Positions 7,511 through 16,993 of a stretch of 64,000 nt of DNA are shown piece by piece. Origin of the DNA: Promethearchaeota archaeon. Its GTDB lineage: Archaea; Asgardarchaeota; Lokiarchaeia; Sigyniarchaeales; SOKP01. Where the stretch lies: positions 89,919-153,918 of the forward strand of contig JAUVNS010000012.1 of NCBI GenBank assembly GCA_030599585.1. The letters run 5' to 3'. The notes below the pieces were generated by a model that was not told where the DNA came from, ran no database searches, and worked only from the letters and a program-made list of their open reading frames with translations. Position 1 is the stretch's first letter, and the number at the start of each line of letters is the position of its first letter. Position numbers and translations under genes: made by a program.

Positions 7511-8632
7511 TTATTTCTTCTTTAGGAATTGCTTATAAATTAGCACATAGTTTTTTACACTCACTACTTTAGGATTACGCCTAAAACTAGATGGGATAGG
7601 AGTGCTACAACGGGAACAGAGGTTTGAAGTCCGCATCCAATCTTTAAATTCATCAGCGTGGGAAGGATACCTACACTTTGGACACACAACTACTCCCCGT
7701 CCTCTATCTTCAGGAAGTTTTGGTAATTTAAAACAAAAGATGCACTTAAAATCCTCTAACGTTAAATACGATGCCCTTGGCCTAAAATTAGTCAGATTTC
7801 GAACCTTTGGAGTCGATTTGACTTTAGTTGTACGAGAAATATTTGAAGTTTTAGTTCTAGTAGTTTGTCTACGTGATGTGGGTGTTATTCTTGATGATTT
7901 AGTTCTTGAGCTTGATGTACGCGTAGTTGTCCTAGTAGAGGGAGTTGGATTAGTGACCCTCGTTGTCCGTACACGTTGTCTCTGTGTTGTAGGTGAGGTC
8001 AAATTATTAATCGTTCTAGTACGGTTTGCAATATAATCACGAGTTAATGTTGGTAATGATGAGCTTGTACTAGCAAATCCAAACACTATTACTATTAAAA
8101 TTGTAGCTAATAATAGAAGTAAGAGATTCAAATCCAATGGAAAACTTTCGTTAACGCTGTAAAAACTTATCCAATAGGTTAAAATGAAAATTAAAACAGA
8201 GAAGGATAGAATATATCCCAAGGTTCTCGCTTTTACTGCTTTTGTTCCAAAATATATTACGTTGTATTTTTTAAAACAGCGATATAGAGAGTAAGAGCCA
8301 AATATTATAAAAGGAAAAGCAAAAATAAGGCTCCATAAACTAAAATATAGACCTCCAAGTAGATTCTCTCCTAATACTCCTGTGTAAAAACCCCAAATAG
8401 AATAAAAAATTCCAATACCTAAAGGAACAATGACAAAAAATGCGGTATTATGTGGTGAATTAAACTCACGGTGACGTTTAATGTTTTCAAATATTTTTAA
8501 TGTAAAAATTAACCATAACCCAATTAATAACCAAGTTGCAAAATTAGTAAAAGAATAAGTGAGCAAACCATGAATTACACCAATAATCAGAAATGCGGTA
8601 AATATTATTGTTAAAATTTTATTTTTAACCAT
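7511..8632 (-). CDS. Polytopic (~6 TM) membrane protein with C-terminal RING-type zinc finger; putative E3 ligase
   Basis: Six hydrophobic segments in the first ~190 aa, then a Thr/Ser/Arg-rich linker, then CIFC-x16-CPKC-x4-H-x2-E-x3-W-x6-CSRC. Last gene of the Ubl-E1-E2-JAB run. Confidence 0.75.
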   Translation of the reverse strand: MVKNKILTIIFTAFLIIGVIHGLLTYSFTNFATWLLIGLWLIFTLKIFENIKRHREFNSPHNTAFFVIVPLGIGIFYSIWGFYTGVLGENLLGGLYFSLWSLIFAFPFIIFGSYSLYRCFKKYNVIYFGTKAVKARTLGYILSFSVLIFILTYWISFYSVNESFPLDLNLLLLLLATILIVIVFGFASTSSSLPTLTRDYIANRTRTINNLTSPTTQRQRVRTTRVTNPTPSTRTTTRTSSSRTKSSRITPTSRRQTTRTKTSNISRTTKVKSTPKVRNLTNFRPRASYLTLEDFKCIFCFKLPKLPEDRGRGVVVCPKCRYPSHADEFKDWMRTSNLCSRCSTPIPSSFRRNPKVVSVKNYVLIYKQFLKKK

Positions 8633-8663
8633 GATTTGATATCACCAAAGATGTTTTTTATCT

Positions 8664-9488
8664 TTATTCATCATATTCTAAATATGCTGGTTTTCCATGA
8701 ATAATTGGGTTCATGAATTCCAAAATTTCTGGTAACATTCTCACATCTAAATGCCCCTTAATATCAAAAGGCACTGAGAACCACTTCCGAGTTTTAAAAT
8801 TTGCGCGATAAATTTCAAAACCAAAAGATTTCCCGTTAATTTGATATGGATCGATGACGAGTGCTACAGCTTTATTCCACAATTTCTGATACCTTGCCTG
8901 AGTTCCTAAATCTTCTCTTGACATGAAGCAGCCGTAACTCGGATGGGAATGATACCAGCCTGTAATAAAAAGCCCCTTTTTTTTAATATCTCTGAAAGCT
9001 CTCACATAATTCTTATAATCCTTTATTTCAGCATAAACCGCGGTCCCATGTCCCATTGGATAAGCATCCTCCAAGTGTAAGACTCCTTTAGCACTATCAT
9101 AGTTCCCTGCGAGTAAACCTATTACTTCCACCCAATCATCTCTAGGTATTTTAGAATTAGCATATTTTAAAGAATGGCTCGCGATCTTAAGAATTGCTTT
9201 TGTAGTGATAGCTATCTTAGCTTTAGTTCTCTCGTTACTAGCTACAGTTTTTACTGGTTCCATGGGGATGGGTTCAAGTTTGACTTTATTTGAATGAATA
9301 ATCGGCTTCGCTTTGATAATCTCAGTTGTTATTTCTTCTTGTAATTCTTCTAATTGTAACTCAGTGTATACTTCTTCAAGTAATTCTTTTTTAATTTTCT
9401 CTTTAATTTTTTGTTTTATAGCATCTCTGATTGATTCGCTATTCTTTTCATCGATATTCATTCTAGGTTCACCATTTATCCTTGGCAT
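8664..9488 (-). CDS. JAB/MPN+ metalloprotease (Rpn11/CSN5-like deubiquitinase/maturase)
   Basis: EVIGLLAG...GWYHSHPSYGCFMSREDLGTQ...VALVIDP is an intact JAMM motif; charged N-terminal extension. Confidence 0.92.
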   Translation of the reverse strand: MPRINGEPRMNIDEKNSESIRDAIKQKIKEKIKKELLEEVYTELQLEELQEEITTEIIKAKPIIHSNKVKLEPIPMEPVKTVASNERTKAKIAITTKAILKIASHSLKYANSKIPRDDWVEVIGLLAGNYDSAKGVLHLEDAYPMGHGTAVYAEIKDYKNYVRAFRDIKKKGLFITGWYHSHPSYGCFMSREDLGTQARYQKLWNKAVALVIDPYQINGKSFGFEIYRANFKTRKWFSVPFDIKGHLDVRMLPEILEFMNPIIHGKPAYLEYDE

Positions 9489-9996
9489 ACTTCTTTACTA
9501 AATTTTTAACTTTTTTATCAAAAAATTTCGGATTTTTCATCATTTCTATAGCTGCTTTTTTATTAAACACATCAGTCGGATTAACATATTTTCCTCGAGT
9601 GTTTAACATAGCAATTATTGCATGAACAACTGTAACCGCTGTTTTTGAAGGACTCCATCCTCCTTTTTTGCCAATTAGAGACGGATCTACTAAAGCTAAG
9701 CAAATATTTCTTTGTCCTTTATATTCACTTGGCTTTGGCCAAAAATTTGGGTGCCATATTGGAGTATGCAATCTAACAAAAGGAGGCTGTTTAGGATATT
9801 GAATGGGAAACCTCATTTCTAATTTAAACAATCCTCCAGCATAGGCAGTGCCTTTAGGGCCTTTAATCAATACAGCTAAGTGATCGATACTCTTTTTTTT
9901 TGGATTAAATGGCTTCAATTGAATAATAGTACCCTGTTTTAGCAACTTTTTTAGTCCCGCAAAATCTCGGGAAACTCGACTACTTCTTATACTCAT
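9469..9996 (-). CDS. Ubiquitin-conjugating enzyme E2
   Basis: IKGPKGTAYAGGLF, FPIQYPKQPP, IWHPN, catalytic NICL and WSPS motifs. Confidence 0.93.
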   Translation of the reverse strand: MSIRSSRVSRDFAGLKKLLKQGTIIQLKPFNPKKKSIDHLAVLIKGPKGTAYAGGLFKLEMRFPIQYPKQPPFVRLHTPIWHPNFWPKPSEYKGQRNICLALVDPSLIGKKGGWSPSKTAVTVVHAIIAMLNTRGKYVNPTDVFNKKAAIEMMKNPKFFDKKVKNLVKKYAKDKW

Positions 9997-10051
9997 ATTC
10001 TTAACCCCGTTTTTTTTATTATATTTTAAAATTATGTTTTGAATTAAATTA

Positions 10052-11284
10052 TTATTTAATTTTTAAGGTTACATGAATTTCTCCGCCTTTAAACCCCGCA
10101 ACGGTTAGAAATTCGTAATTCCTTAAATTATTTTGAGTTGGGTTTTGCTCTAAATCTAAAACAATAATATCATTAAAATCCAATAGAGTTATTATCGGTT
10201 CAAATTCAGAATCCAATTCAAATCCATTTCTTTCTAGCGTATTAATTATATTTACGCAAGGTGAACTATCTCTCATTTTAATGGAAACTCGTCTTGCACT
10301 TTTACCACATTGAGAACATTCTGGATTTCTCTTCTTTTCAATGTGGTGTAATTTCATAGTCATCGCATTAAATATAATGTAATTTTTGATGGGCTCACCT
10401 AAGCCCTTGTGACCTTTTTCCCAATGAAGGATTTTAACCGCTTCATGAGATTGTAATGCTGAAATAGTTGCGTTAATCGTAATGATGCCAGGATCGTGGC
10501 GATCAATAATTTTTACGATATCATCTTCAGTATATTCAGGTAAAAAATTATGCTTTATTACATACTCATTCGCAACTTTTTGAATAAATCTAATATCTTC
10601 GATATTTTTAGGATTCGGATCTTTATCAAATTTCTCTTTAAAGGCCATATCCCCTTTAAAAACGCAATGAATTCTTTTTCGAGGGATACCAACTACTGTA
10701 CAAGCTGCCATATCATCATTTTGGATGTCGGGTAATGGATTACATTCATAACATGCATTTTGAAATGGAAATATCGTATATACATGACCATAATAACCAG
10801 AAACCCCTCCATCTACCAAAGGTTTCTTAAATCTAATGCATTGAGCGTTTAAGTTCAACCTTGCATTCATTGAATCAAGACCTCCAATTACAACATCTGA
10901 AGCGTGATAGAGTGCTGGATTTAATCTTTCTAAGGATGTATGATACCCTTTAACAATAATATTAGGATTAATTTCGACCAATTTTCTAGCAGCAATAAAT
11001 GCTTTAGGTTCTCCTAACTTTGCTCCAGCAAAGAGAATTTGACGATTCAGGTTAGAATGTTCAATTATATCAATATCAACAAGATCTATATGACCAACGC
11101 CCAACATACTTAAATTCTTGGCAATTTCACATCCCAAACCACCAACCCCAGCGATTAACACTCTTGAATTTTTAACTAATTTCTGGGACCAACCTTCTAA
11201 ACGAAATTGGCGATCGTATAAGTCTCTCTCTTCTTCTGACATTCCTTTTGTAAAAAAATCTGAATCCTTATGCAATATTATCAC
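10052..11284 (-). CDS. Ubiquitin-like activating enzyme E1 (UBA2/UBA3-like)
   Basis: LYDRQ, GVGGLGCE, SNLNRQ, GLDS..AR, ACYEC, catalytic AACT..GIPR...HC and C-terminal CSQC zinc motifs. Confidence 0.93.
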   Translation of the reverse strand: MIILHKDSDFFTKGMSEEERDLYDRQFRLEGWSQKLVKNSRVLIAGVGGLGCEIAKNLSMLGVGHIDLVDIDIIEHSNLNRQILFAGAKLGEPKAFIAARKLVEINPNIIVKGYHTSLERLNPALYHASDVVIGGLDSMNARLNLNAQCIRFKKPLVDGGVSGYYGHVYTIFPFQNACYECNPLPDIQNDDMAACTVVGIPRKRIHCVFKGDMAFKEKFDKDPNPKNIEDIRFIQKVANEYVIKHNFLPEYTEDDIVKIIDRHDPGIITINATISALQSHEAVKILHWEKGHKGLGEPIKNYIIFNAMTMKLHHIEKKRNPECSQCGKSARRVSIKMRDSSPCVNIINTLERNGFELDSEFEPIITLLDFNDIIVLDLEQNPTQNNLRNYEFLTVAGFKGGEIHVTLKIK

Positions 11285-11364
11285 CTTTAATATTAATCAA
11301 AAAAATAAAAAAATTGAAGGGCTTAATGCCCTTATCATATATTATATTTTATGAAAAGAATTAT

Positions 11365-11697
11365 TTAAAAGTATCCAGCTGTACTCGCTGGGATCAAAAG
11401 AATATCGTCGCCGTTACTAACACTATAGTCTTTTAACTGGCTACCTTCATCCATTGTTACGCCACCAGAACTAATGTGAAAGTCATCTGGATCAAGTCCA
11501 AATAAATTTCCAAGCGTTTGTTTGATATCACTTATGTTATTTGCGTCGTTTACAGTCAACTTTTCCTTCTTTTCACCAGGACCAATAGTTGACATGAAAT
11601 ATAAAGTCAATTTTTTGCCTGTTGAGGGAACTTTGCTTGATGGGGTTTTAGAGCTAACTGGTTCTAATTCCTCATCAAAATCTTCATCAAAACTCAT
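11365..11697 (-). CDS. Ubiquitin-like modifier with acidic N-tail; precursor ends ...ASTAG-YF
   Basis: Beta-grasp pattern (ISDIK...FGLDPDDFHISSGG..MDEGSQLKDYSV..GDDILLIP). First gene of the E1-E2-JAB operon. Confidence 0.88.
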   Translation of the reverse strand: MSFDEDFDEELEPVSSKTPSSKVPSTGKKLTLYFMSTIGPGEKKEKLTVNDANNISDIKQTLGNLFGLDPDDFHISSGGVTMDEGSQLKDYSVSNGDDILLIPASTAGYF

Positions 11698-11958
11698 TCA
11701 AATCACTCCTTTATTTTTTTAATTTAAGTTTTTTTTTAAAACTTAATAATATCACGTTAAAATGATATTAAAAAACCCATTGGAATGATTTTGAAGTTTT
11801 TTGAGTTTTGTTTAAAATGTGAGTATCCATGTTAAAAAACCTAATATAATATATTTATAAATTAAATGAATGTCTATCAATATATATAAATAGGAAAATA
11901 TCGTTTTAGAGAGAAGATTTGATAAAATATATCAGTTAATTCAACCCGTTAAAATAAA

Positions 11959-12642
11959 ATGCTTATGAACACTCCGGATAACCTTCAATCTATTGTTTGT
12001 GATATCATAAAGGAATATCTAAAAAAGAAACCTTTCTTTTCAATAGAAGATATAGTGGTGTTCATCGCTAATAGAGTGAGATCGAATCCTAATCTAAATA
12101 GGAACAGCATTGAACTCATTATTAAAAATCTTATAAAAAAAAGAATTCTGATCCCTGGAACCAAATTAATGAAGAATAATATAATAGAATTACCAATACG
12201 AAACGAAATTTACAACCATATTAAGAAACACCCATCGAACATTAATGAAATAATGAAAGCAATCAATATTGGAAGCAACCAAGCGCTCTGGCATTTGTCC
12301 ACGTTAGAGAAGTTTAGATTTACGCGATCAAAAAAAATCAATAATCAAAGAATGATTTTTGAATATGAATCTAATCCCGATCTAGATGAGTTGTATTACT
12401 ATTTGAAACAGGATGTTGTGCAAGATATTATCAACCTTCTGAAAGAAGAACACAAAACCTTTAAAATCACGGAAATAGCTGCGAATTTAAAAAGAAATTA
12501 CAATACTGTAAAGAAATATCTTGAAATATTAAGAAATCTGAAAATAATAAAAATTGAAAAAAATAAAAAAAGAGTTCTATATAGAATAGACCTAGAGAAA
12601 TATGACAATCTCAAGAAATCAATTATTGATAATGAACTATAA
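11959..12642 (+). CDS. Double winged-helix transcriptional regulator (ArsR-like)
   Basis: RNEIYNHIKKHP..INEI...ALWHLSTL and ITEIAANLKRNYNTVKKYLEIL HTH segments; divergent from the Ubl operon. Confidence 0.75.
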   Translation: MLMNTPDNLQSIVCDIIKEYLKKKPFFSIEDIVVFIANRVRSNPNLNRNSIELIIKNLIKKRILIPGTKLMKNNIIELPIRNEIYNHIKKHPSNINEIMKAINIGSNQALWHLSTLEKFRFTRSKKINNQRMIFEYESNPDLDELYYYLKQDVVQDIINLLKEEHKTFKITEIAANLKRNYNTVKKYLEILRNLKIIKIEKNKKRVLYRIDLEKYDNLKKSIIDNEL

Positions 12643-12721
12643 AAATTACGAATTTATACCAATTGAATTTATAAAATTAGATAATAATTAGAAAATTAGA
12701 TAATACTTTAATCAAAAAATC

Positions 12722-13516
12722 ATGAAGAAAAAATATAGAGTTTTAAATATTATAACTCTTTATGTTGTTTTCGCTTTAATCTATTTGACTTTCTTCCTAT
12801 TACAACTAGATAGTTTACCATTATTCCTCTTTCTAACTATTGGGAGTGTTGCTGTATTATCGACAGGTACGATCTATACCGTCGTTCAATATAAAAGCAG
12901 CCCAGCGAAGAGGATAAAAAAAGACAAATATTATCAAAAGCCAAAATCTATCAAAAGAACTTCGAGTGAACTGATTGAGGATTACCTTGAAGCTATGCCA
13001 TTAATAGATCAATACGCTGACACCACTGAAACCTTTGAAAATATTGATTCAATCGATGATTATATTTTTACTTTTTTCACTCAGGAAGTATTAGATAAAA
13101 TCGATTTGTTAGGGTTTTCAAAAATGGATAAAATCTTTTTTATCAGAGAGATGTTGTATTTTGATGCTGATGAGAGAAAGCAACTTATTGATGATATTTT
13201 GAAAAATAAAGATTTAATTGACGAACAGATAACATACAACCCTCCATTAACCACAATTGGAATGGATGATAAAGTTCGCGTTTATGTAAGATCCTTAGTC
13301 GAACCGGGGGAGAGAACCAAAATCATCATTATTGAAACCTCCGAATTAATAGATATAATCAAGGAGCAAGTTGGAATTCTTTTTGATTATAGTTTGGAAG
13401 ATTTTCATTTATCTTCGGGGGGAATTCTCCTTTCCACAGAAAAGCAAATAAAGGACTATTTTATTGACGATGATGACGAAATTGCTCTGATTCCGTCGAG
13501 AAAAAAAGATAAATAG
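12722..13516 (+). CDS. Membrane-anchored (2 TM) protein with C-terminal ubiquitin-like domain lacking terminal Gly
   Basis: Two N-terminal TM helices. The C-terminal EPGE...IKEQVGILFD...DFHLSSGG...IKDY...DDEIALIP aligns with the two Ubls; ends PSRKKDK. Confidence 0.8.
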   Translation: MKKKYRVLNIITLYVVFALIYLTFFLLQLDSLPLFLFLTIGSVAVLSTGTIYTVVQYKSSPAKRIKKDKYYQKPKSIKRTSSELIEDYLEAMPLIDQYADTTETFENIDSIDDYIFTFFTQEVLDKIDLLGFSKMDKIFFIREMLYFDADERKQLIDDILKNKDLIDEQITYNPPLTTIGMDDKVRVYVRSLVEPGERTKIIIIETSELIDIIKEQVGILFDYSLEDFHLSSGGILLSTEKQIKDYFIDDDDEIALIPSRKKDK

Positions 13517-13532
13517 AATGAGATTTTTTTTC

Positions 13533-15191
13533 CTAGAGATTTCTAATTTCTTGAAACCTACTAATAACCCATTTTTTATCCAAGGCAGCTATGAATGGTG
13601 CAAACCGAGGACCCCTTGTTCTTCCAAGAAACAATTGATAGAGTAGTTCAAAGAATTGATTCATATCCTTACGATTTATTTCTGCTTCTTCTCGTAAGGT
13701 TATCATTTTTTGTTTTATATCTTCCTCAGTCCAGTTTGTTTCTTCGAGTGCTTGTCCAAGATCTAAAACAAAGTTACGTATCTTTTCGTTATACTGCCTT
13801 AAAACAACTGGCGAAACGTGTTTGCTTAATTGTATTCTGAGATGTTTTGGAGAATATTCTGATATTACCCAATTCTTAGCCAGATTTAATCTTTTTTGAA
13901 TATGATCAGTAATCTCCTTTGATGGGCTTTCTTTTAACTTTTCTGTTGCTATTAATTTTTCAATAACTTGTTCAGTTCCCTTTTGGTCAGGAGTTACTAG
14001 TTGGGAATGAATAAGAGCAGTTTGATAGTCAAATTGGAATCCTCTATATTCTGGGATGTCATTATAAAACGCAATTTCATAACTCCTTTGAATTGTATGA
14101 AGTTCTGCTGAATCGGTAAATGATTCTATTTTATGATAGATTCTCTGGGCTCGATCGTATTCTGCAATATAACTCGGGATCTTATCTAAACCCAGAATAA
14201 TGCGTCTTTTTGGAGGTGTTTTGAGATATTTATATTTCAATACTTCTGGTTCAGCATATTCTAACCATTTTGTTGGTGTGAACCCGATGAAACCTGAGCT
14301 TGTCATATCTCCAAAATCTTTTCGACCTTCTGAATAGCCAACCCATTCATTCCAAAATCCATATGGCCCTTTATGATTTAGGACAGATTCTAGAACTTCA
14401 ATACAACTATCACGGGATCCTCCTGGTGTAGCATGGTCCTTTCCATACGGTTCAAAATGTATATCCAGAACGTACCATATTGCCAACCATTCAAGCCGCC
14501 AAGTTAATTTTCCCTTGCTAATATCTGACCATCCGTCGTTCTTGCATTCATCACAGAAATAATGAACTTGGTAGGTATCAAGATTAACTTCCAAAGCTTT
14601 TGTTGTACCTATTCGATTACAATGCTGACATAGTGGATTAATGGGAATCCAATTCTCGGGAAAAGGATTTTCTTTACGAAATTTATTTAAGATTTCTCGA
14701 ACCTTGTCCTTTTTGTTAATAAGCTCGATTACTACATTTTTCATTCTCTCCTGCTGATATAATTCATGAGTTCTGATGATCTGAATGCCTCGTCCAAATT
14801 TGGGCATTGGTACTCCAAAATCTTTCCAATAATAATCCACCCAGGTTTCTTTTTGATTGTTAGGAGAAGGAACATCGATTAAACGCCAGTTAATAAATTC
14901 TTTTGCTTTCTCCAGATCTGGAAACGCATTTAATTGAGCAAGTTTCCCCTTCCATGGGTCTGATGTATAGAGAATTAAATTGTGTGTGGCTTGATATCCC
15001 CGATTTTGGAGTTCATTTACAATCGCATTCGCAAGAACAATCTCTCCTCTTAAGCGTCCGATGTGTTGTTGACCAGATACAGAAATTCCACAATTGCAAT
15101 TAAAATCTTTTATTCCTAGCCAATTCTTTATTAGATCGGATGTTAATTTATCTATCCAATGCTGAGGTTGTATCTTTGGCTTCTCTGTCAT
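13533..15191 (-). CDS. lysS: Lysine--tRNA ligase, class I
   Basis: HWID, SGQQHIGRLRG, KLTWRLEW, EPYGKDH...GGS and C-terminal GPR motifs; KMSSS appears as DMTSS. Confidence 0.93.
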   Translation of the reverse strand: MTEKPKIQPQHWIDKLTSDLIKNWLGIKDFNCNCGISVSGQQHIGRLRGEIVLANAIVNELQNRGYQATHNLILYTSDPWKGKLAQLNAFPDLEKAKEFINWRLIDVPSPNNQKETWVDYYWKDFGVPMPKFGRGIQIIRTHELYQQERMKNVVIELINKKDKVREILNKFRKENPFPENWIPINPLCQHCNRIGTTKALEVNLDTYQVHYFCDECKNDGWSDISKGKLTWRLEWLAIWYVLDIHFEPYGKDHATPGGSRDSCIEVLESVLNHKGPYGFWNEWVGYSEGRKDFGDMTSSGFIGFTPTKWLEYAEPEVLKYKYLKTPPKRRIILGLDKIPSYIAEYDRAQRIYHKIESFTDSAELHTIQRSYEIAFYNDIPEYRGFQFDYQTALIHSQLVTPDQKGTEQVIEKLIATEKLKESPSKEITDHIQKRLNLAKNWVISEYSPKHLRIQLSKHVSPVVLRQYNEKIRNFVLDLGQALEETNWTEEDIKQKMITLREEAEINRKDMNQFFELLYQLFLGRTRGPRFAPFIAALDKKWVISRFQEIRNL

Positions 15192-15324
15192 TCTTACTTA
15201 TCACTTTGAGATAGATGATTATTTATAATAATGAAGAATAAAAGAAAAATTTAATTGGAACTTGTTTTGGTGAGAGTTTCGTTTTCTGTTTTACTAGTGT
15301 TTTTATAAAGTCCTTCCAACTTAT

Positions 15325-15711
15325 TCAACCAGCAATGCTAGCTGGAATTAATAATATATCATCTCCATCAGCTACATTGTAATCGTTAAGGTTAGAGAAT
15401 TCATCCATGGTAACTCCCCCTGAAGACAAATGAAAATCAGATGGATCTAAAGCAAATAAATTCGCTACAGTATCTTTGATGTCTCCAATTTTATTCCCTG
15501 TGAATACAAGCAATTTTTGTTTTTTCTCCCCTGGTCCTATAGTGGATAGAAAAAAAACTGAAATCTTTTTTCCTTCAGGAGACTTTTTGCGTTCTGGGGT
15601 CTTAACTCTAAAATCTTTTGTAGGGTGCTTTGAAGACGGATCGTCAAAATCTTCATCTAAGCTTTCATCAAAATCCTCATCGAATTCTTCGTCGAACTCC
15701 TCTTCATCCAT
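15325..15711 (-). CDS. Second ubiquitin-like modifier, mature C-terminus ...ASIAG
   Basis: Close paralogue of 11365..11697 (STIGPGEKK, DFHLSSGGVTMDE, GDDILLIPAS) with a longer acidic DEEF/DEDF tail. Confidence 0.88.
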   Translation of the reverse strand: MDEEEFDEEFDEDFDESLDEDFDDPSSKHPTKDFRVKTPERKKSPEGKKISVFFLSTIGPGEKKQKLLVFTGNKIGDIKDTVANLFALDPSDFHLSSGGVTMDEFSNLNDYNVADGDDILLIPASIAG

Positions 15712-15889
15712 TGCTTAACACCATAAATTTAGATTATTAAATTTTATATTTCTTTTAAAAATTAATGAAATTTATGTTATATAAATAGACTTCACAACAC
15801 CAATTAATTTCTCAAATTGAAATTACAAACACTTTAGAAATCGAATCAATATAATATTAGTAATAAATTATGTAAGGTTAAGAACTGCC

Positions 15890-16993
15890 ATGAAGGAAAA
15901 ACCTATTCCTAAGTATCAAATTCGAGAAAAAACGCCCGAAGAGCAACTAGAACCCATCCCTAATGCGAAATTACTTAAAAAAATTAAGGAAGAAAGAATT
16001 AAATTAAATAAAGAGAAAACTGAATGGGAACGAATTATTAATAAAATTGAAGGGTCTCAAGATAATATTCAAGATTTAGAAAAAAAAAGAAAAGAAAAAG
16101 AACTTCAAGTGAGAGATCTCCAAAACAAACACGAAAAACTAAAAACTAAATTAGATAATATGAGAAACGAAATAAAAGAAAGTAAATATAATCTCAATGC
16201 AAAAGAAAGGGAGTTAGACCAGAAAAATGCCGACTTAGAGCAATATAAAGAGAGATTAGACGGAATAAGAGGCGAATTAGAAAGCGAGAAGAAATACATA
16301 GAAAAAGAAAAAGAAAAAGCAAAAGACAGAATTAAAGAAATAAAAACCAAGTTACCCGGAATGGAACGGAGAGAGAATGCGTTAGAGAGAACAATCGAAA
16401 AGTTGGAAAACAATTTAATGGATTTACGAAACGAAGGTAAAAGCTTAACGAGAGAGAGAGATAACCTAAACAAAGAAATCAATAGTTTGAGAAGAGAGAT
16501 AATAGATGAAAAAAATCGAATTGATAATGAGAAAAGAAGATTAAAAGATGAAAAGGAAAAGGTTCGCTATAAGAAAAAAGACTTAAGTCTTCAAGCTCGT
16601 GATATTGAGAAAAAAAAAGAGAAATTGGGAAAATTTAAAGAGAATGTAAACCACGACGTAAGAGATTTAGAAAGAAAGAAAAAAGGGCACGAGGCAAGGT
16701 TAAAAGAATTAGACCGGAAAGTACCCAAAGCTGAAGATACTTATTTTTCACTAGAACACAAAATTAATAATTCAGAGAATAAATTGAAAAATTTAAAAAC
16801 CGAAATAAAAAAATTGGAAAAGGAAAAATCGAAAATTGAGGATGATAAATTTTCAATTAGAAAGGAGAGGCAAAGATTAGACAGTGATAAAGAGAGATTT
16901 CTTAGAGAAAAGAAAAGTTTTGAGAGAGAATTAAAAAAGGCAAAAGAAATACCAAAATATAAAATCAAATCAAAAACTCCTTCGAGATATTAA
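15890..16993 (+). CDS. Long charged coiled-coil protein with IPKY(Q/K)I motif at both ends
   Basis: E/K/R-rich heptads over ~320 aa; no globular motif seen. Confidence 0.7.
   Translation: MKEKPIPKYQIREKTPEEQLEPIPNAKLLKKIKEERIKLNKEKTEWERIINKIEGSQDNIQDLEKKRKEKELQVRDLQNKHEKLKTKLDNMRNEIKESKYNLNAKERELDQKNADLEQYKERLDGIRGELESEKKYIEKEKEKAKDRIKEIKTKLPGMERRENALERTIEKLENNLMDLRNEGKSLTRERDNLNKEINSLRREIIDEKNRIDNEKRRLKDEKEKVRYKKKDLSLQARDIEKKKEKLGKFKENVNHDVRDLERKKKGHEARLKELDRKVPKAEDTYFSLEHKINNSENKLKNLKTEIKKLEKEKSKIEDDKFSIRKERQRLDSDKERFLREKKSFERELKKAKEIPKYKIKSKTPSRY

Follow-up and report, generated by a model that had tools for sequence, protein, structure and literature searches.

A membrane-anchored, non-conjugatable ubiquitin-like protein linked to a winged-helix gene and a ubiquitin-like operon in Lokiarchaeia

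The window analysed here (64,000 nt of contig JAUVNS010000012.1 from a Promethearchaeota archaeon) carries a ubiquitin-like conjugation operon on the minus strand (7511..11697), in which the gene of a free modifier, Ubl1 (11365-11697), comes first and is followed by those of an E1 (10052-11284), an E2 (9469-9996), a JAB protein (8664-9488) and a membrane RING protein (7511-8632). Divergent from this operon, as the earlier note on this DNA had described, lies the gene of a 227-aa tandem winged-helix protein (11959..12642, plus strand), and 79 nt downstream in the same direction begins the membrane-Ubl gene (12722..13516, plus strand; 264 aa), which is the subject of this study. The gene of Ubl2, a second free modifier ending in IAG (15325..15711, minus strand), is in most relatives directly convergent to the membrane-Ubl gene; in the present genome and in its nearest relative (G264) the two are separated by the gene of a class I LysRS (13533-15191). 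No RNA family was found by Rfam in 11300-16000 at E<=1.

The membrane-Ubl protein consists of a membrane hairpin, a basic linker, a tail domain and a non-conjugatable ubiquitin-like domain (UBL). The three-part anatomy given in the earlier note (TM pair, helical middle, C-terminal domain) is thus correct, and what it overlooked is the probable role of the middle region as partner of the winged-helix protein, together with a locus-specific promoter element common to the membrane-Ubl gene and the Ubl1 operon. The two N-terminal TM helices were borne out by hydropathy and AlphaFold2: Kyte-Doolittle windows mark hydrophobic segments at residues 7-29 (12740..12808, plus strand) and 33-55 (12818..12886, plus strand), preceded by MKKKYR and followed by a linker of charge +10, and AlphaFold2 places helices at 2-26 and 32-57. 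TM helix 1 occupies the position of the signal peptide in paralogues and fits their architecture. TM helix 2, nearly invariant in the alignment of relatives (LTIGSVAVLSTxTIYTV), is part of a conserved TM-plus-tail module, and paralogue alignments begin within it. Because of the flanking MKKKYR and the +10 linker, an N-in/C-in topology is predicted, which would leave the rest of the protein in the cytoplasm; the outer loop comprises six residues only by hydropathy and AlphaFold2, and there is no extracellular sensor domain. The juxtamembrane linker (residues 56-80; 12887..12961, plus strand) is basic and appears disordered from its sequence and from a pLDDT below 50 in residues 58-90. No Pfam or NCBIfam match was obtained outside the UBL. 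The family contains 401 proteins at E<=0.01, and the best 120 of these 401 are 59–100% identical and named only as "hypothetical" or "Ubiquitin-like domain-containing".

The UBL occupies residues 184-259 (13271..13498, plus strand). In BLASTP, residues 184-260 are 36% identical to Ubl1 (E 2e-17) and 38% identical to Ubl2 (E 1e-15). AlphaFold2 modelled residues 184-258 at pLDDT 78-91 in the order beta-beta-alpha-beta-beta-beta, so that the C-terminal domain is a beta-grasp in the model, as membership in the Ubl family had led the earlier note to expect, and not some other fold. In Foldseek, the domain superposes on ubiquitin, NEDD8 and ISG15 over about 75 residues (TM 0.8-0.92, rmsd 1.0-1.9 A, probability 1.00) and on Caldiarchaeum ubiquitin 6fno_D with TM 0.78. 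Its score against Pfam ubiquitin (PF00240) is 17.7 bits, below the gathering cut-off of 25.4 bits; Ubl1 and Ubl2 are likewise under this cut-off, and a precomputed PF00240 match is present in some members of the membrane-Ubl family. Among the motifs that the three proteins had been said to share, PGE is found in all of them and DFHLSSGG is identical in Ubl2 but reads DFHISSGG in Ubl1, and the counterpart of DDEIALIP reads GDDILLIP, so this motif is common only in part. Modifier-type motifs are retained in the beta1-beta2 loop, beta3-beta4 and beta5, and the motifs common to the UBL and the free modifiers are invariant throughout the family. Lys200, Lys214 and Lys244 are conserved as well. The UBL is not preceded by KSKTP, a motif that stands before the domain in the free modifiers.

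The protein terminates in IPSRKKDK (RKKDK and stop codon at 13499..13516, plus strand), the Gly-less end that had been read earlier, and in all 22 aligned relatives, as in distant members, the sequence after beta5 is free of Gly. Since the C-terminal Gly is absent, the protein cannot be activated by E1 and is a UBL-domain protein, not a modifier. In the phylogenetic tree, all conjugatable Ubls form one clade with 99/99 support, which does not include the UBL domains of the family; these sit on a long branch, and a recent duplication of Ubl1 or Ubl2 as their source was rejected on this placement. The closest sequence found (48% identity) is the UBL of a zinc-ribbon/coiled-coil protein ending in IPSRVAG.

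Between linker and UBL lies the tail domain (residues 81-165; 12962..13216, plus strand), a small helical domain recognized from profile matches, from adjacency and fusion to winged-helix (wHTH) genes and from its AlphaFold2 core, with the motif LSxxDKxxFIxEMLxLxxxERxxLIxxML. This cytoplasmic domain is previously undescribed in the literature searched. A profile built on residues 80-165 recovers paralogues, the reciprocal search recovers the tail of the membrane-Ubl protein, and the tail profile also matches the C-terminal ends of numerous membrane proteins of Asgard archaea; the module common to all of these is a TM helix plus a helical tail of ~85 aa (FIxEML...ER...L). The paralogues carry large ectodomains, whereas the membrane-Ubl protein lacks one and has a UBL on the cytoplasmic side; small relatives with TM and tail and no UBL exist as well. 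Modelled alone, the tail domain reached a pLDDT of 69, with a core at 76-87. In a broad comparison with known structures its highest Z was 5.6, which is under the noise threshold given for models made of helices; anti-sigma entries at Z 4.0-4.4 were rejected as noise, and the domain is assigned to no fold. The zinc finger beside some tail domains was considered as a RING and discarded, having no Pfam match.

The neighbouring 227-aa protein is of the ArsR/SmtB/SdpR-like DNA-binding type according to Pfam, NCBIfam and PDB-profile matches and contains two to three tandem winged helices. Its profile matches (ArsR/SmtB, SdpR, Lrs14, Sso10a) are all DNA-binding types, and for this reason an ESCRT-II reading of the tandem winged helices was rejected. 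It is 27–30% identical to two paralogues that also flank tail proteins. In the source genome, all 3 tail proteins adjoin the 3 members of one winged-helix subfamily, which score 333-382 bits, while other members of the winged-helix family score at most 66 bits. Across 26 genomes, including those of other families, a winged-helix gene is close to 21 of 24 tail matches, nearly always within ~600 bp. The distance is 400 bp or less in 27 of 40 paralogous loci (473 bp in one more), where tail and winged-helix genes occur in both orders, and a winged-helix gene adjoins the membrane-Ubl gene in every orthologous locus (20/20). Furthermore, three natural fusions have the order ectodomain-TM-tail-wHTH. 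The tail domain and the preceding helix thus form a family-specific module, and across one Lokiarchaeial family the tail is systematically encoded beside, and at times fused to, one winged-helix subfamily; this pairing of the middle domain is the strongest evidence in the locus.

Linkage to the Ubl system was checked by co-occurrence. Four genera provided 20 loci, and in every one of these a free Ubl gene adjoins the membrane-Ubl gene; the complete E1-E2-JAB-RING operon stands beside it in 15 of the 20. In line with the earlier note, the distribution of the protein is thus not independent of the operon; indeed, the family was found only beside Ubl genes. In sister genera, RING-JAB-E2-E1-Ubl is intact and faces a coiled-coil gene directly, with neither membrane-Ubl protein nor regulator. 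The operon of these genera, with its membrane RING, does without the membrane-Ubl protein, which is a lineage-specific addition met in a single Lokiarchaeial family only. The family was not found in three genomes of the same order that are single contigs. In one split locus (G207), the membrane-Ubl gene stays with the regulator, apart from E1-E2-JAB-RING.

An element of ~30 nt is common to the promoters of the Ubl1-E1-E2-JAB-RING operon and of the membrane-Ubl gene. Its core, ATTCCAnTGGAAT, abuts a TATA-like box and is preceded by TTCAAA/TTCCAA repeats 10 bp apart, and at both promoters it has the same orientation, pointing to the downstream gene. Site 1 (11764..11800, minus strand) reads AAAACTTCAAAATCATTCCAATGGGTTTTTTAATATC toward Ubl1 and lies ~65 nt before the Ubl1 ATG; site 2 (12642..12678, plus strand) reads AAAATTACGAATTTATACCAATTGAATTTATAAAATT toward the membrane-Ubl gene, 43 nt before the ATG, and is in this genome a degenerate copy of 11 bits, the consensus of the relatives being AAAACTTCAAATTTATTCCAATGGAATTTATATTTTA. 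In 16 aligned loci of two genera (g1, g2) site 1 is a conserved block, and it is degenerate in two others (g6, g7). Across three genera the element is kept while the surrounding intergenic DNA has diverged. With a position weight matrix (PWM), site 1 reaches 58.9 bits and the second-highest match in the 4.85-Mb genome 18.7 bits, and no other place has a high score. After the copies of the site-1 type, the next match is the membrane-Ubl spacer in 18 of 18 loci (g1, g2, g7). Additional copies precede the E2 gene of one genus and, where Ubl1 is present as two tandem genes, both of these.

The element is absent from the sister genera that lack the regulator, and no PWM score above 0 was obtained in eight loci without the cassette; since the loci are related and the cassette probably arose once, this co-occurrence of element and regulator reflects few independent events. 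In the split locus the element is perfect at both halves, and it lies there inside a duplicated segment of ~165 bp that is ~95% identical throughout, so its preservation is weak evidence of selection. No common upstream motif was seen in the paralogue cassettes of ~450 aa, which are preceded by another gene. A factor other than the winged-helix protein could bind the element.

From the above, we think it slightly more probable than improbable that the membrane-Ubl protein docks the winged-helix regulator at the membrane and that its pseudo-modifier domain couples this docking to the conjugation machinery. Sequestration and autoregulation of the regulator are what we infer from the gene pairing, the fusions and the shared promoter element. 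The winged-helix protein would bind the shared element and control both the operon and the membrane-Ubl promoters, acting either as repressor or as activator, and the tail domain would keep it membrane-bound in the manner of SdpI with SdpR, or of anti-sigma factors with their sigma factors. Given an outer loop of six residues in place of the large ectodomains of the paralogues, the signal would have to be cytoplasmic and the UBL would be the sensor, although this role of the UBL as input domain is purely conjectural. In the most likely mechanism, the UBL would serve the pathway's own enzymes as a pseudo-substrate or a pseudo-modifier; candidate readers are E2~Ubl plus the membrane RING, JAB, or E1. 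How far the anchor is occupied or turned over would then depend on how the conjugation system stands, and with it the release of the regulator and operon transcription. Permanent tethering of a winged-helix protein is possible, as the fused forms show, and docking would therefore not have to inactivate it.

A stronger version of this docking scheme, which we regard as doubtful, is a homeostatic loop: in the tethered pseudo-ubiquitin, the membrane RING pathway would have a substrate or sensor of its own, whose modification, extraction or occupancy would free the regulator and thereby reset the transcription of both the sensor gene and the Ubl-E1-E2-JAB-RING operon. Such a loop would amount to the control logic of NRF1 or Spt23/Mga2 in a prokaryote, made from different parts. 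NRF1/NFE2L1 and yeast Spt23/Mga2 are membrane-tethered transcription factors under ubiquitin-system control, and the likeness proposed here is a membrane-bound regulator that controls the genes of its own system and is made available through a membrane RING pathway. There is no homology, however; regulator and anchor are usually separate proteins here, and the anchor contains its ubiquitin-like moiety from the start and does not receive it later.

For docking as such, the closest parallel is SdpR/SdpI of Bacillus subtilis, where an ArsR-type autorepressor is sequestered at the membrane (PMC2910880). In both cases the gene of an ArsR-type winged-helix regulator adjoins that of a membrane protein, docking being conjectured for the archaeal pair; the membrane partners are not homologous, and the archaeal system differs in having tandem winged helices and a cytoplasmic UBL as putative input. 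The SdpR model NF033789 gives the winged-helix protein 35.9 bits against a cut-off of 100, which is general ArsR-like similarity, so the comparison is a mechanistic analogy and not membership. As in anti-sigma/sigma pairs such as RsgI-SigI, the paralogues combine a constant docking module with variable sensor domains. The operon beside the gene is of the same type as the Ub-E1-E2-RING-Rpn11 operons of Caldiarchaeum subterraneum (PMC5654768, PMC6043591); as far as is known, these differ in that their modifiers are free and their RING protein is small and soluble. No description of a membrane-tethered archaeal UBL or of a regulator of an Asgard Ub operon was found in the full-text literature searched.

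The earlier note had proposed an ERAD-like adaptor for the membrane RING, with eukaryotic membrane UBL proteins as precedent. In its general form, the tethered UBL would recruit or titrate E1, E2, JAB, an AAA ATPase or the proteasome beside the polytopic RING ligase, with the regulator as a mere neighbour, and we hold this to be unlikely. The anatomy, the beta-grasp fold, the lost Gly and the Ubl linkage were rightly recognized; against an obligatory role speak the sister genera, where the membrane RING operon is intact without the protein, and the split locus, where the protein segregates with the regulator and not with E1-E2-JAB-RING. The tail domain and its wHTH pairing and fusion would be left unexplained too. 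On the other hand, the UBL retains the free-modifier motifs, the gene stands beside the operon in 15 of 20 loci, and the promoter element held in common with the operon means that the gene is probably co-expressed with it; such co-regulation fits an adaptor role equally well. HERP/Usa1 and TMUB1/2 are membrane UBL proteins of ERAD in eukaryotes with an N-terminal UBL, and HERP/Usa1 scaffolds Hrd1. They share with the archaeal protein the combination of a UBL and membrane helices in a genome also encoding a polytopic RING ligase, but the domain order is reversed (UBL C-terminal here), nothing outside the UBL is similar and the archaeal RING operon exists without the membrane-Ubl protein, so the comparison holds as an analogy only. 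A further precedent is offered by MUB (plants) and UBL3 (animals), which likewise present a non-conjugatable ubiquitin fold on the cytoplasmic membrane face, and MUBs bind specific E2s in MUB:E2 complexes and inhibit E2~Ub formation (PMC4996978). Their anchor is a C-terminal CaaX prenylation, with no TM helix, tail domain or linked transcription factor, whereas the membrane-Ubl protein has no Cys in its C-terminal region and is anchored by the N-terminal TM hairpin. The adaptor or decoy role and the docking of a regulator are compatible with each other and not mutually exclusive.

Three other explanations concern the UBL or the element. If the beta-grasp were a dimerisation or regulator-binding surface unrelated to conjugation, the protein would still be a regulatory anchor, with its signal coming from the membrane or elsewhere. 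The position of the UBLs outside the conjugatable clade on a long branch, from which a diverged function may be read, and the small TM-plus-tail relatives without a UBL agree with this, but we consider it improbable in view of a family confined to the vicinity of Ubl genes, a promoter element common with the Ubl1 operon and free-modifier motifs invariant across the family. Alternatively, the protein might mimic cargo, a permanently "ubiquitylated" membrane tail that recruits Ub receptors of the UEV/ESCRT-I type to the membrane; its architecture is like that of in-frame Ub-cargo fusions. Lokiarchaeial UEV-domain proteins do bind ubiquitin in two-hybrid assays, but Ub and ESCRT genes lie in separate clusters in Lokiarchaeota (PMC9192718). 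No ESCRT gene occurs in the conserved neighbourhood of the membrane-Ubl gene, the UBL is a diverged branch without the KSKTP pre-domain motif, and the pairing with the regulator would go unexplained, all of which makes this mimicry very improbable. Finally, two related sequences of ~37 nt, inverted and ~880 bp apart, flank the winged-helix gene in a cassette that is an insertion relative to the sister genera, as terminal repeats of a mobile unit would, and the element copies need not then be operators. We give this almost no credence: only one place in the genome scores high and further copies are absent from it, there is no transposase, the repeats outlast their diverged flanks in three genera, and the extra copies before E2 and duplicated Ubl1 always point toward the downstream gene and abut a TATA-like box.

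Asgard archaea carry eukaryote-like ubiquitin operons, and the docking of a regulator by the membrane-Ubl protein would offer a concrete circuit for their control. Its parts would be a dedicated regulator, a ~30-nt element at exactly two promoters and a membrane anchor with a dead copy of the modifier as input domain. Anchor, regulator and DNA element are small, and the soluble tail, the UBL and the regulator should be practical to produce and assay in vitro. Beyond this locus, the link that the tail domain makes to winged-helix proteins recurs in dozens of surface proteins of Lokiarchaeia, and this may represent a kinase-free route from membrane to gene. The family also indicates that UBL-domain proteins, as distinct from modifiers, and the membrane tethering of ubiquitin folds exist outside eukaryotes.

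The target ORF (12722-13516, + strand) encodes a protein of 264 aa, in which hydropathy places two membrane segments at residues 7-29 and 33-55, separated by a loop of six residues (QLDSLP). This TM pair is bordered by MKKKYR on the N-terminal side and by a linker of net charge +10 on the other, so both termini should be cytoplasmic according to the positive-inside rule. In the AlphaFold2 model, built from a 53-row alignment, we found a helical hairpin (residues 2-26 and 32-57), a disordered linker (58-90), a helical region (81-161) and a C-terminal domain (pLDDT 78-91) with strands at 184-191 and 198-205, a helix at 210-221, and strands at 228-232 and 252-258. Foldseek superposed this last domain on ubiquitin, NEDD8, ISG15 and Caldiarchaeum ubiquitin with a probability of 1.00 (TM 0.8-0.92 on the target, rmsd 1.0-1.9 A). 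Its identity is 36% to the free modifier Ubl1 (11365-11697, -; E 2e-17) and 38% to the second one, Ubl2 (15325-15711, -; E 1e-15), while the two modifiers share 60%. The free modifiers end in IPASTAG-YF and IPASIAG and the target in IPSRKKDK, and no Gly follows beta5 in 22 aligned target relatives or in distant members. The earlier note had described a membrane-tethered, Gly-less member of the Ubl family, and the hydropathy, the identity to both modifiers, the C-terminus and the modelled ubiquitin-like domain all bear this out. Invariant columns are numerous in TM2, in the UBL and in the latter half of the middle domain, and all three modules are under strong constraint.

A word-indexed search returned 401 relatives at E<=0.01; the best 120 of the 401 are 59-100% identical to the target, come almost all from Lokiarchaeota/Promethearchaeota bins or sediment metagenomes, and include none with a functional name. 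Across the phylum, 46 of 301 genomes contain a full-length match, and every one of these belongs to the family of the window (own genus, 23 of 28; second genus, 20 of 22; two further genera, 2 of 5 and 1 of 2). A tree of 51 UBL domains sets the membrane-tethered UBLs on a long branch of their own, outside the 99/99-supported clade of every conjugatable Ubl. The closest sequence found to the target UBL (48% identity) belongs to a soluble zinc-ribbon/coiled-coil protein, whose UBL ends in IPSRVAG (L031:9819-10601, -).

Several other members of the Ubl family were observed. The library protein P0134 (372 aa) carries three ubiquitin-like repeats in one chain, each ending in HSTAG or FSTAG with an acidic spacer after it, and is the product of a polyubiquitin-like precursor gene of this family. 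A 602-aa protein with a Walker-A motif (GSGKT) ends in a conjugatable UBL (LLIPASTAG); its gene (L032:1910-3718, +) adjoins the Ubl operon in a genome of the same phylum but a different family, and such an ending might in principle allow the entire enzyme to be joined to targets. AG-ending UBLs are also fused to other domains in P0141, P0144, P0149 and L031:9819-10601 (-), one being preceded by a weak Roadblock/LC7 match (16.3 bits vs a cut-off of 23) and others by a zinc-ribbon plus coiled-coil domain; the relatives P0185 and P0216 no longer have this Gly. The motif [IV]-[KR]-[ST]-K-T-P precedes the UBL in free and fused modifiers (11365-11697, 15325-15711, P0134, P0141, P0144 and P0149) and also lies near both termini of the conserved coiled-coil neighbour (15890-16993; IREKTP..., ...KSKTPSRY), and proteins with this motif possibly share a binding partner. 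The membrane-tethered UBL has a conserved Y-x-P-P in place of the motif.

Synteny was compared in 20 loci from four genera. The leftward block RING-JAB-E2-E1-Ubl1 (7511-11697, -) is followed by the rightward genes of the winged-helix (wHTH) regulator (11959-12642, +) and the membrane Ubl, and beyond these lie Ubl2 (leftward) and then coiled-coil, 349-aa and TPR genes (rightward). The regulator adjoins the target in every locus (20 of 20). Co-occurrence with the Ubl operon, which had been put forward as a check, was found as at least one free Ubl gene beside the target in 20 of 20 loci and the full enzyme operon in 15 of 20, with contig ends cutting two more. One genus keeps no more of the operon beside the target than a short RING and Ubl1, and genome G207 has the enzyme operon at a distance of 36 kb from the regulator, target, Ubl2 and coiled-coil gene, which remain together. 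A class I LysRS gene (13533-15191, -) separates the target from Ubl2 in two genomes only, that of the window and that of its nearest relative (G264), and the two genes are directly convergent in the other compared loci with Ubl2. In sister genera of the family and in a second family of the phylum, RING-JAB-E2-E1-Ubl directly faces the coiled-coil gene, and these loci contain no regulator, membrane Ubl or second Ubl. The cassette is therefore an insertion specific to this lineage, placed in the divergent promoter region, and since the sister loci keep the RING operon without it, the membrane RING ligase does not need the cassette.

The spacer between Ubl1 and the regulator contains a block, GATATTAwAAAACCnnTTGGAATGATTTTGAAGTTTT. 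Among the aligned loci, the 16 from genera g1 and g2 keep it, the three from g6 and g7 have a degenerate form, and the flanks have diverged. With a weight matrix derived from the aligned sites, 11764-11800 scored 58.9 bits and the next best position in the 4.85-Mb genome 18.7. After copies of this type (site 1), the next match falls on the opposite strand of the ~80-nt spacer between the regulator and the membrane Ubl (site 2) in 18 of 18 loci from three genera. Site 1, read towards Ubl1, is AAAACTTCAAAATCATTCCAAtGGGTTTTATAATATC (about 65 nt before its ATG), and site 2, read towards the membrane Ubl, is AAAACTtCAAATTTATTCCAATGGAATTTATATTTTA (about 45 nt before its ATG). Each site contains a TTCAAA/TTCCAA pair 10 bp apart, the palindrome ATTCCAnTGGAAT, which is perfect in many site-2 copies, and a TATA-like box directly after; in the window itself, the copy at site 2 (12642-12678) is weaker. 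A third copy precedes E2 in one genus, a locus with two tandem Ubl1 genes has one copy before each, and no weight-matrix score above 0 was obtained in eight loci without the cassette. Given the second copy, the membrane-Ubl gene would have a separate promoter of the operon's type, the putative archaeal promoters at both sites being assigned by eye. The element travels with the regulator; most simply, the winged-helix protein would bind it, and the regulator probably acts on this shared element.

Two further observations concern the element and the G207 locus. A match to its 17-nt core, TTGGAAAGATTTTGGAG, lies at 14813 (-) in the LysRS gene, 1.3 kb from the target; it is one of only eight genome-wide at <=2 mismatches and may be due to chance. 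The two halves of the G207 locus (L015:8560-8730 and L074:9783-9890) share a duplicated segment of ~165 bp (about 95% identical) with the first ~20 codons of Ubl1, its promoter and the element, and similarity stops just past the element. Beside the relocated operon, two 84-aa reading frames (L074:9968-10222, - and 11923-12177, -) show RING-H2-like Cys/His spacing, CIICHEII...CHFCGN..HSKCI..W....CPFC.

When the window's genome was searched with the target, the two Ubls and two ~450-aa proteins matching residues 29-163 were recovered. Both ~450-aa paralogues contain a signal peptide, an ectodomain, one TM helix and a C-terminal tail domain, and each directly adjoins a ~227-aa protein 27-30% identical to the winged-helix protein 11959-12642. 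A profile search of 1.84 billion representatives found many proteins, 165-2081 aa long, that end in the TM-plus-tail module, which now and then has an unclassified zinc finger with eight ligands, or a J domain, next to it. The tail domain is nearly confined to the window's family (57 of the 60 genomes with a match are members), with up to 13 matches per genome in two genera; modelled by itself it forms a small helical bundle, for which no structural match rose above noise. Two tandem tail domains occur in several large surface proteins (G153:C261, G144:C38, G246:C159, G132:C4, G204:C21 and G030:C70). No Pfam family matched the zinc finger, C-x2-H-x10-C-x2-C-x4-C-x2-C-x9-C-x2-C; in P0155, P0223 and the L043 genes it stands N-terminal to the tail, in P0173 C-terminal to it. 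Locus L043 (G273:C157:19200-30700) has one winged-helix gene and after it three finger-plus-tail genes, two with a TM helix.

The window's genome has three tail proteins and seven winged-helix family members. The three members beside tail proteins form a distinct subfamily (333-382 bits vs <=66 for the rest), and the other four have their own TM helices, such as G000:C34:112824-114077 (+) and G000:C22:177119-177823 (+), or neighbour polytopic membrane proteins, so membrane attachment seems a general theme of the family. In 26 related genomes, including those of other families, a winged-helix gene is close by for 21 of 24 tail matches (nearly all within about 600 bp), and it lies within 400 bp in at least 27 of 40 further paralogous tail loci (very long genes being covered on their downstream side only), with one more at 473 bp; all these loci are paralogous cassettes, not independent events. 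The linkage persists down to 20-30% identity, the genes occur in both orders, and three proteins of one genome carry ectodomain, TM, tail and a complete winged-helix protein in one reading frame, which together argue for a direct functional partnership. The tail and regulator are very probably partners, most simply by physical contact. The winged-helix protein resembles the DNA-binding ArsR/SmtB, SdpR, Lrs14 and Sso10a proteins, by which an ESCRT-II reading of it was ruled out.

From these sequence comparisons, we propose that the membrane Ubl docks the regulator at the membrane, that the regulator would control both the operon and the anchor gene, and that the cytoplasmic UBL may supply the input, because the target has no ectodomain. 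The enzymes of the conjugation pathway would read the UBL as a pseudo-modifier or pseudo-substrate, with which Lys200, Lys214 and Lys244, shared with the free modifiers, are compatible; anchor occupancy or turnover, and hence regulator availability, would follow the state of the conjugation system. The role of the UBL as coupling input is tentative, and the whole statement, an anchor that docks the regulator and a UBL that couples its availability to conjugation, is held with slightly better than even confidence.

The earlier note had read the protein as an adaptor or decoy. This is compatible with docking, but it does not account for the tail domain, the fusions or the segregation at the split locus, and the RING operon of sister genera works without a membrane Ubl; we consider it unlikely. 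Weaker than this are the readings that the UBL is unrelated to the conjugation pathway, which is improbable, that it mimics cargo for ESCRT-type receptors, which is very improbable, and that the inverted element copies represent a mobile element, which we regard as the least credible of all. For the docking of a regulator, SdpR/SdpI is the closest mechanistic precedent (PMC2910880), and MUB is a precedent for a tethered ubiquitin fold acting on E2s (PMC4996978).

Taken singly, proteins with a UBL domain, tethered ubiquitin folds and regulators docked at a membrane are already known. In the literature searched, no description was found that combines a TM hairpin, a new candidate docking domain, a dead paralogue of the locus's own modifier, a dedicated regulator and a two-promoter element inside an Asgard ubiquitin-like operon. 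The combination appears restricted to one family, and the mechanism is putative.
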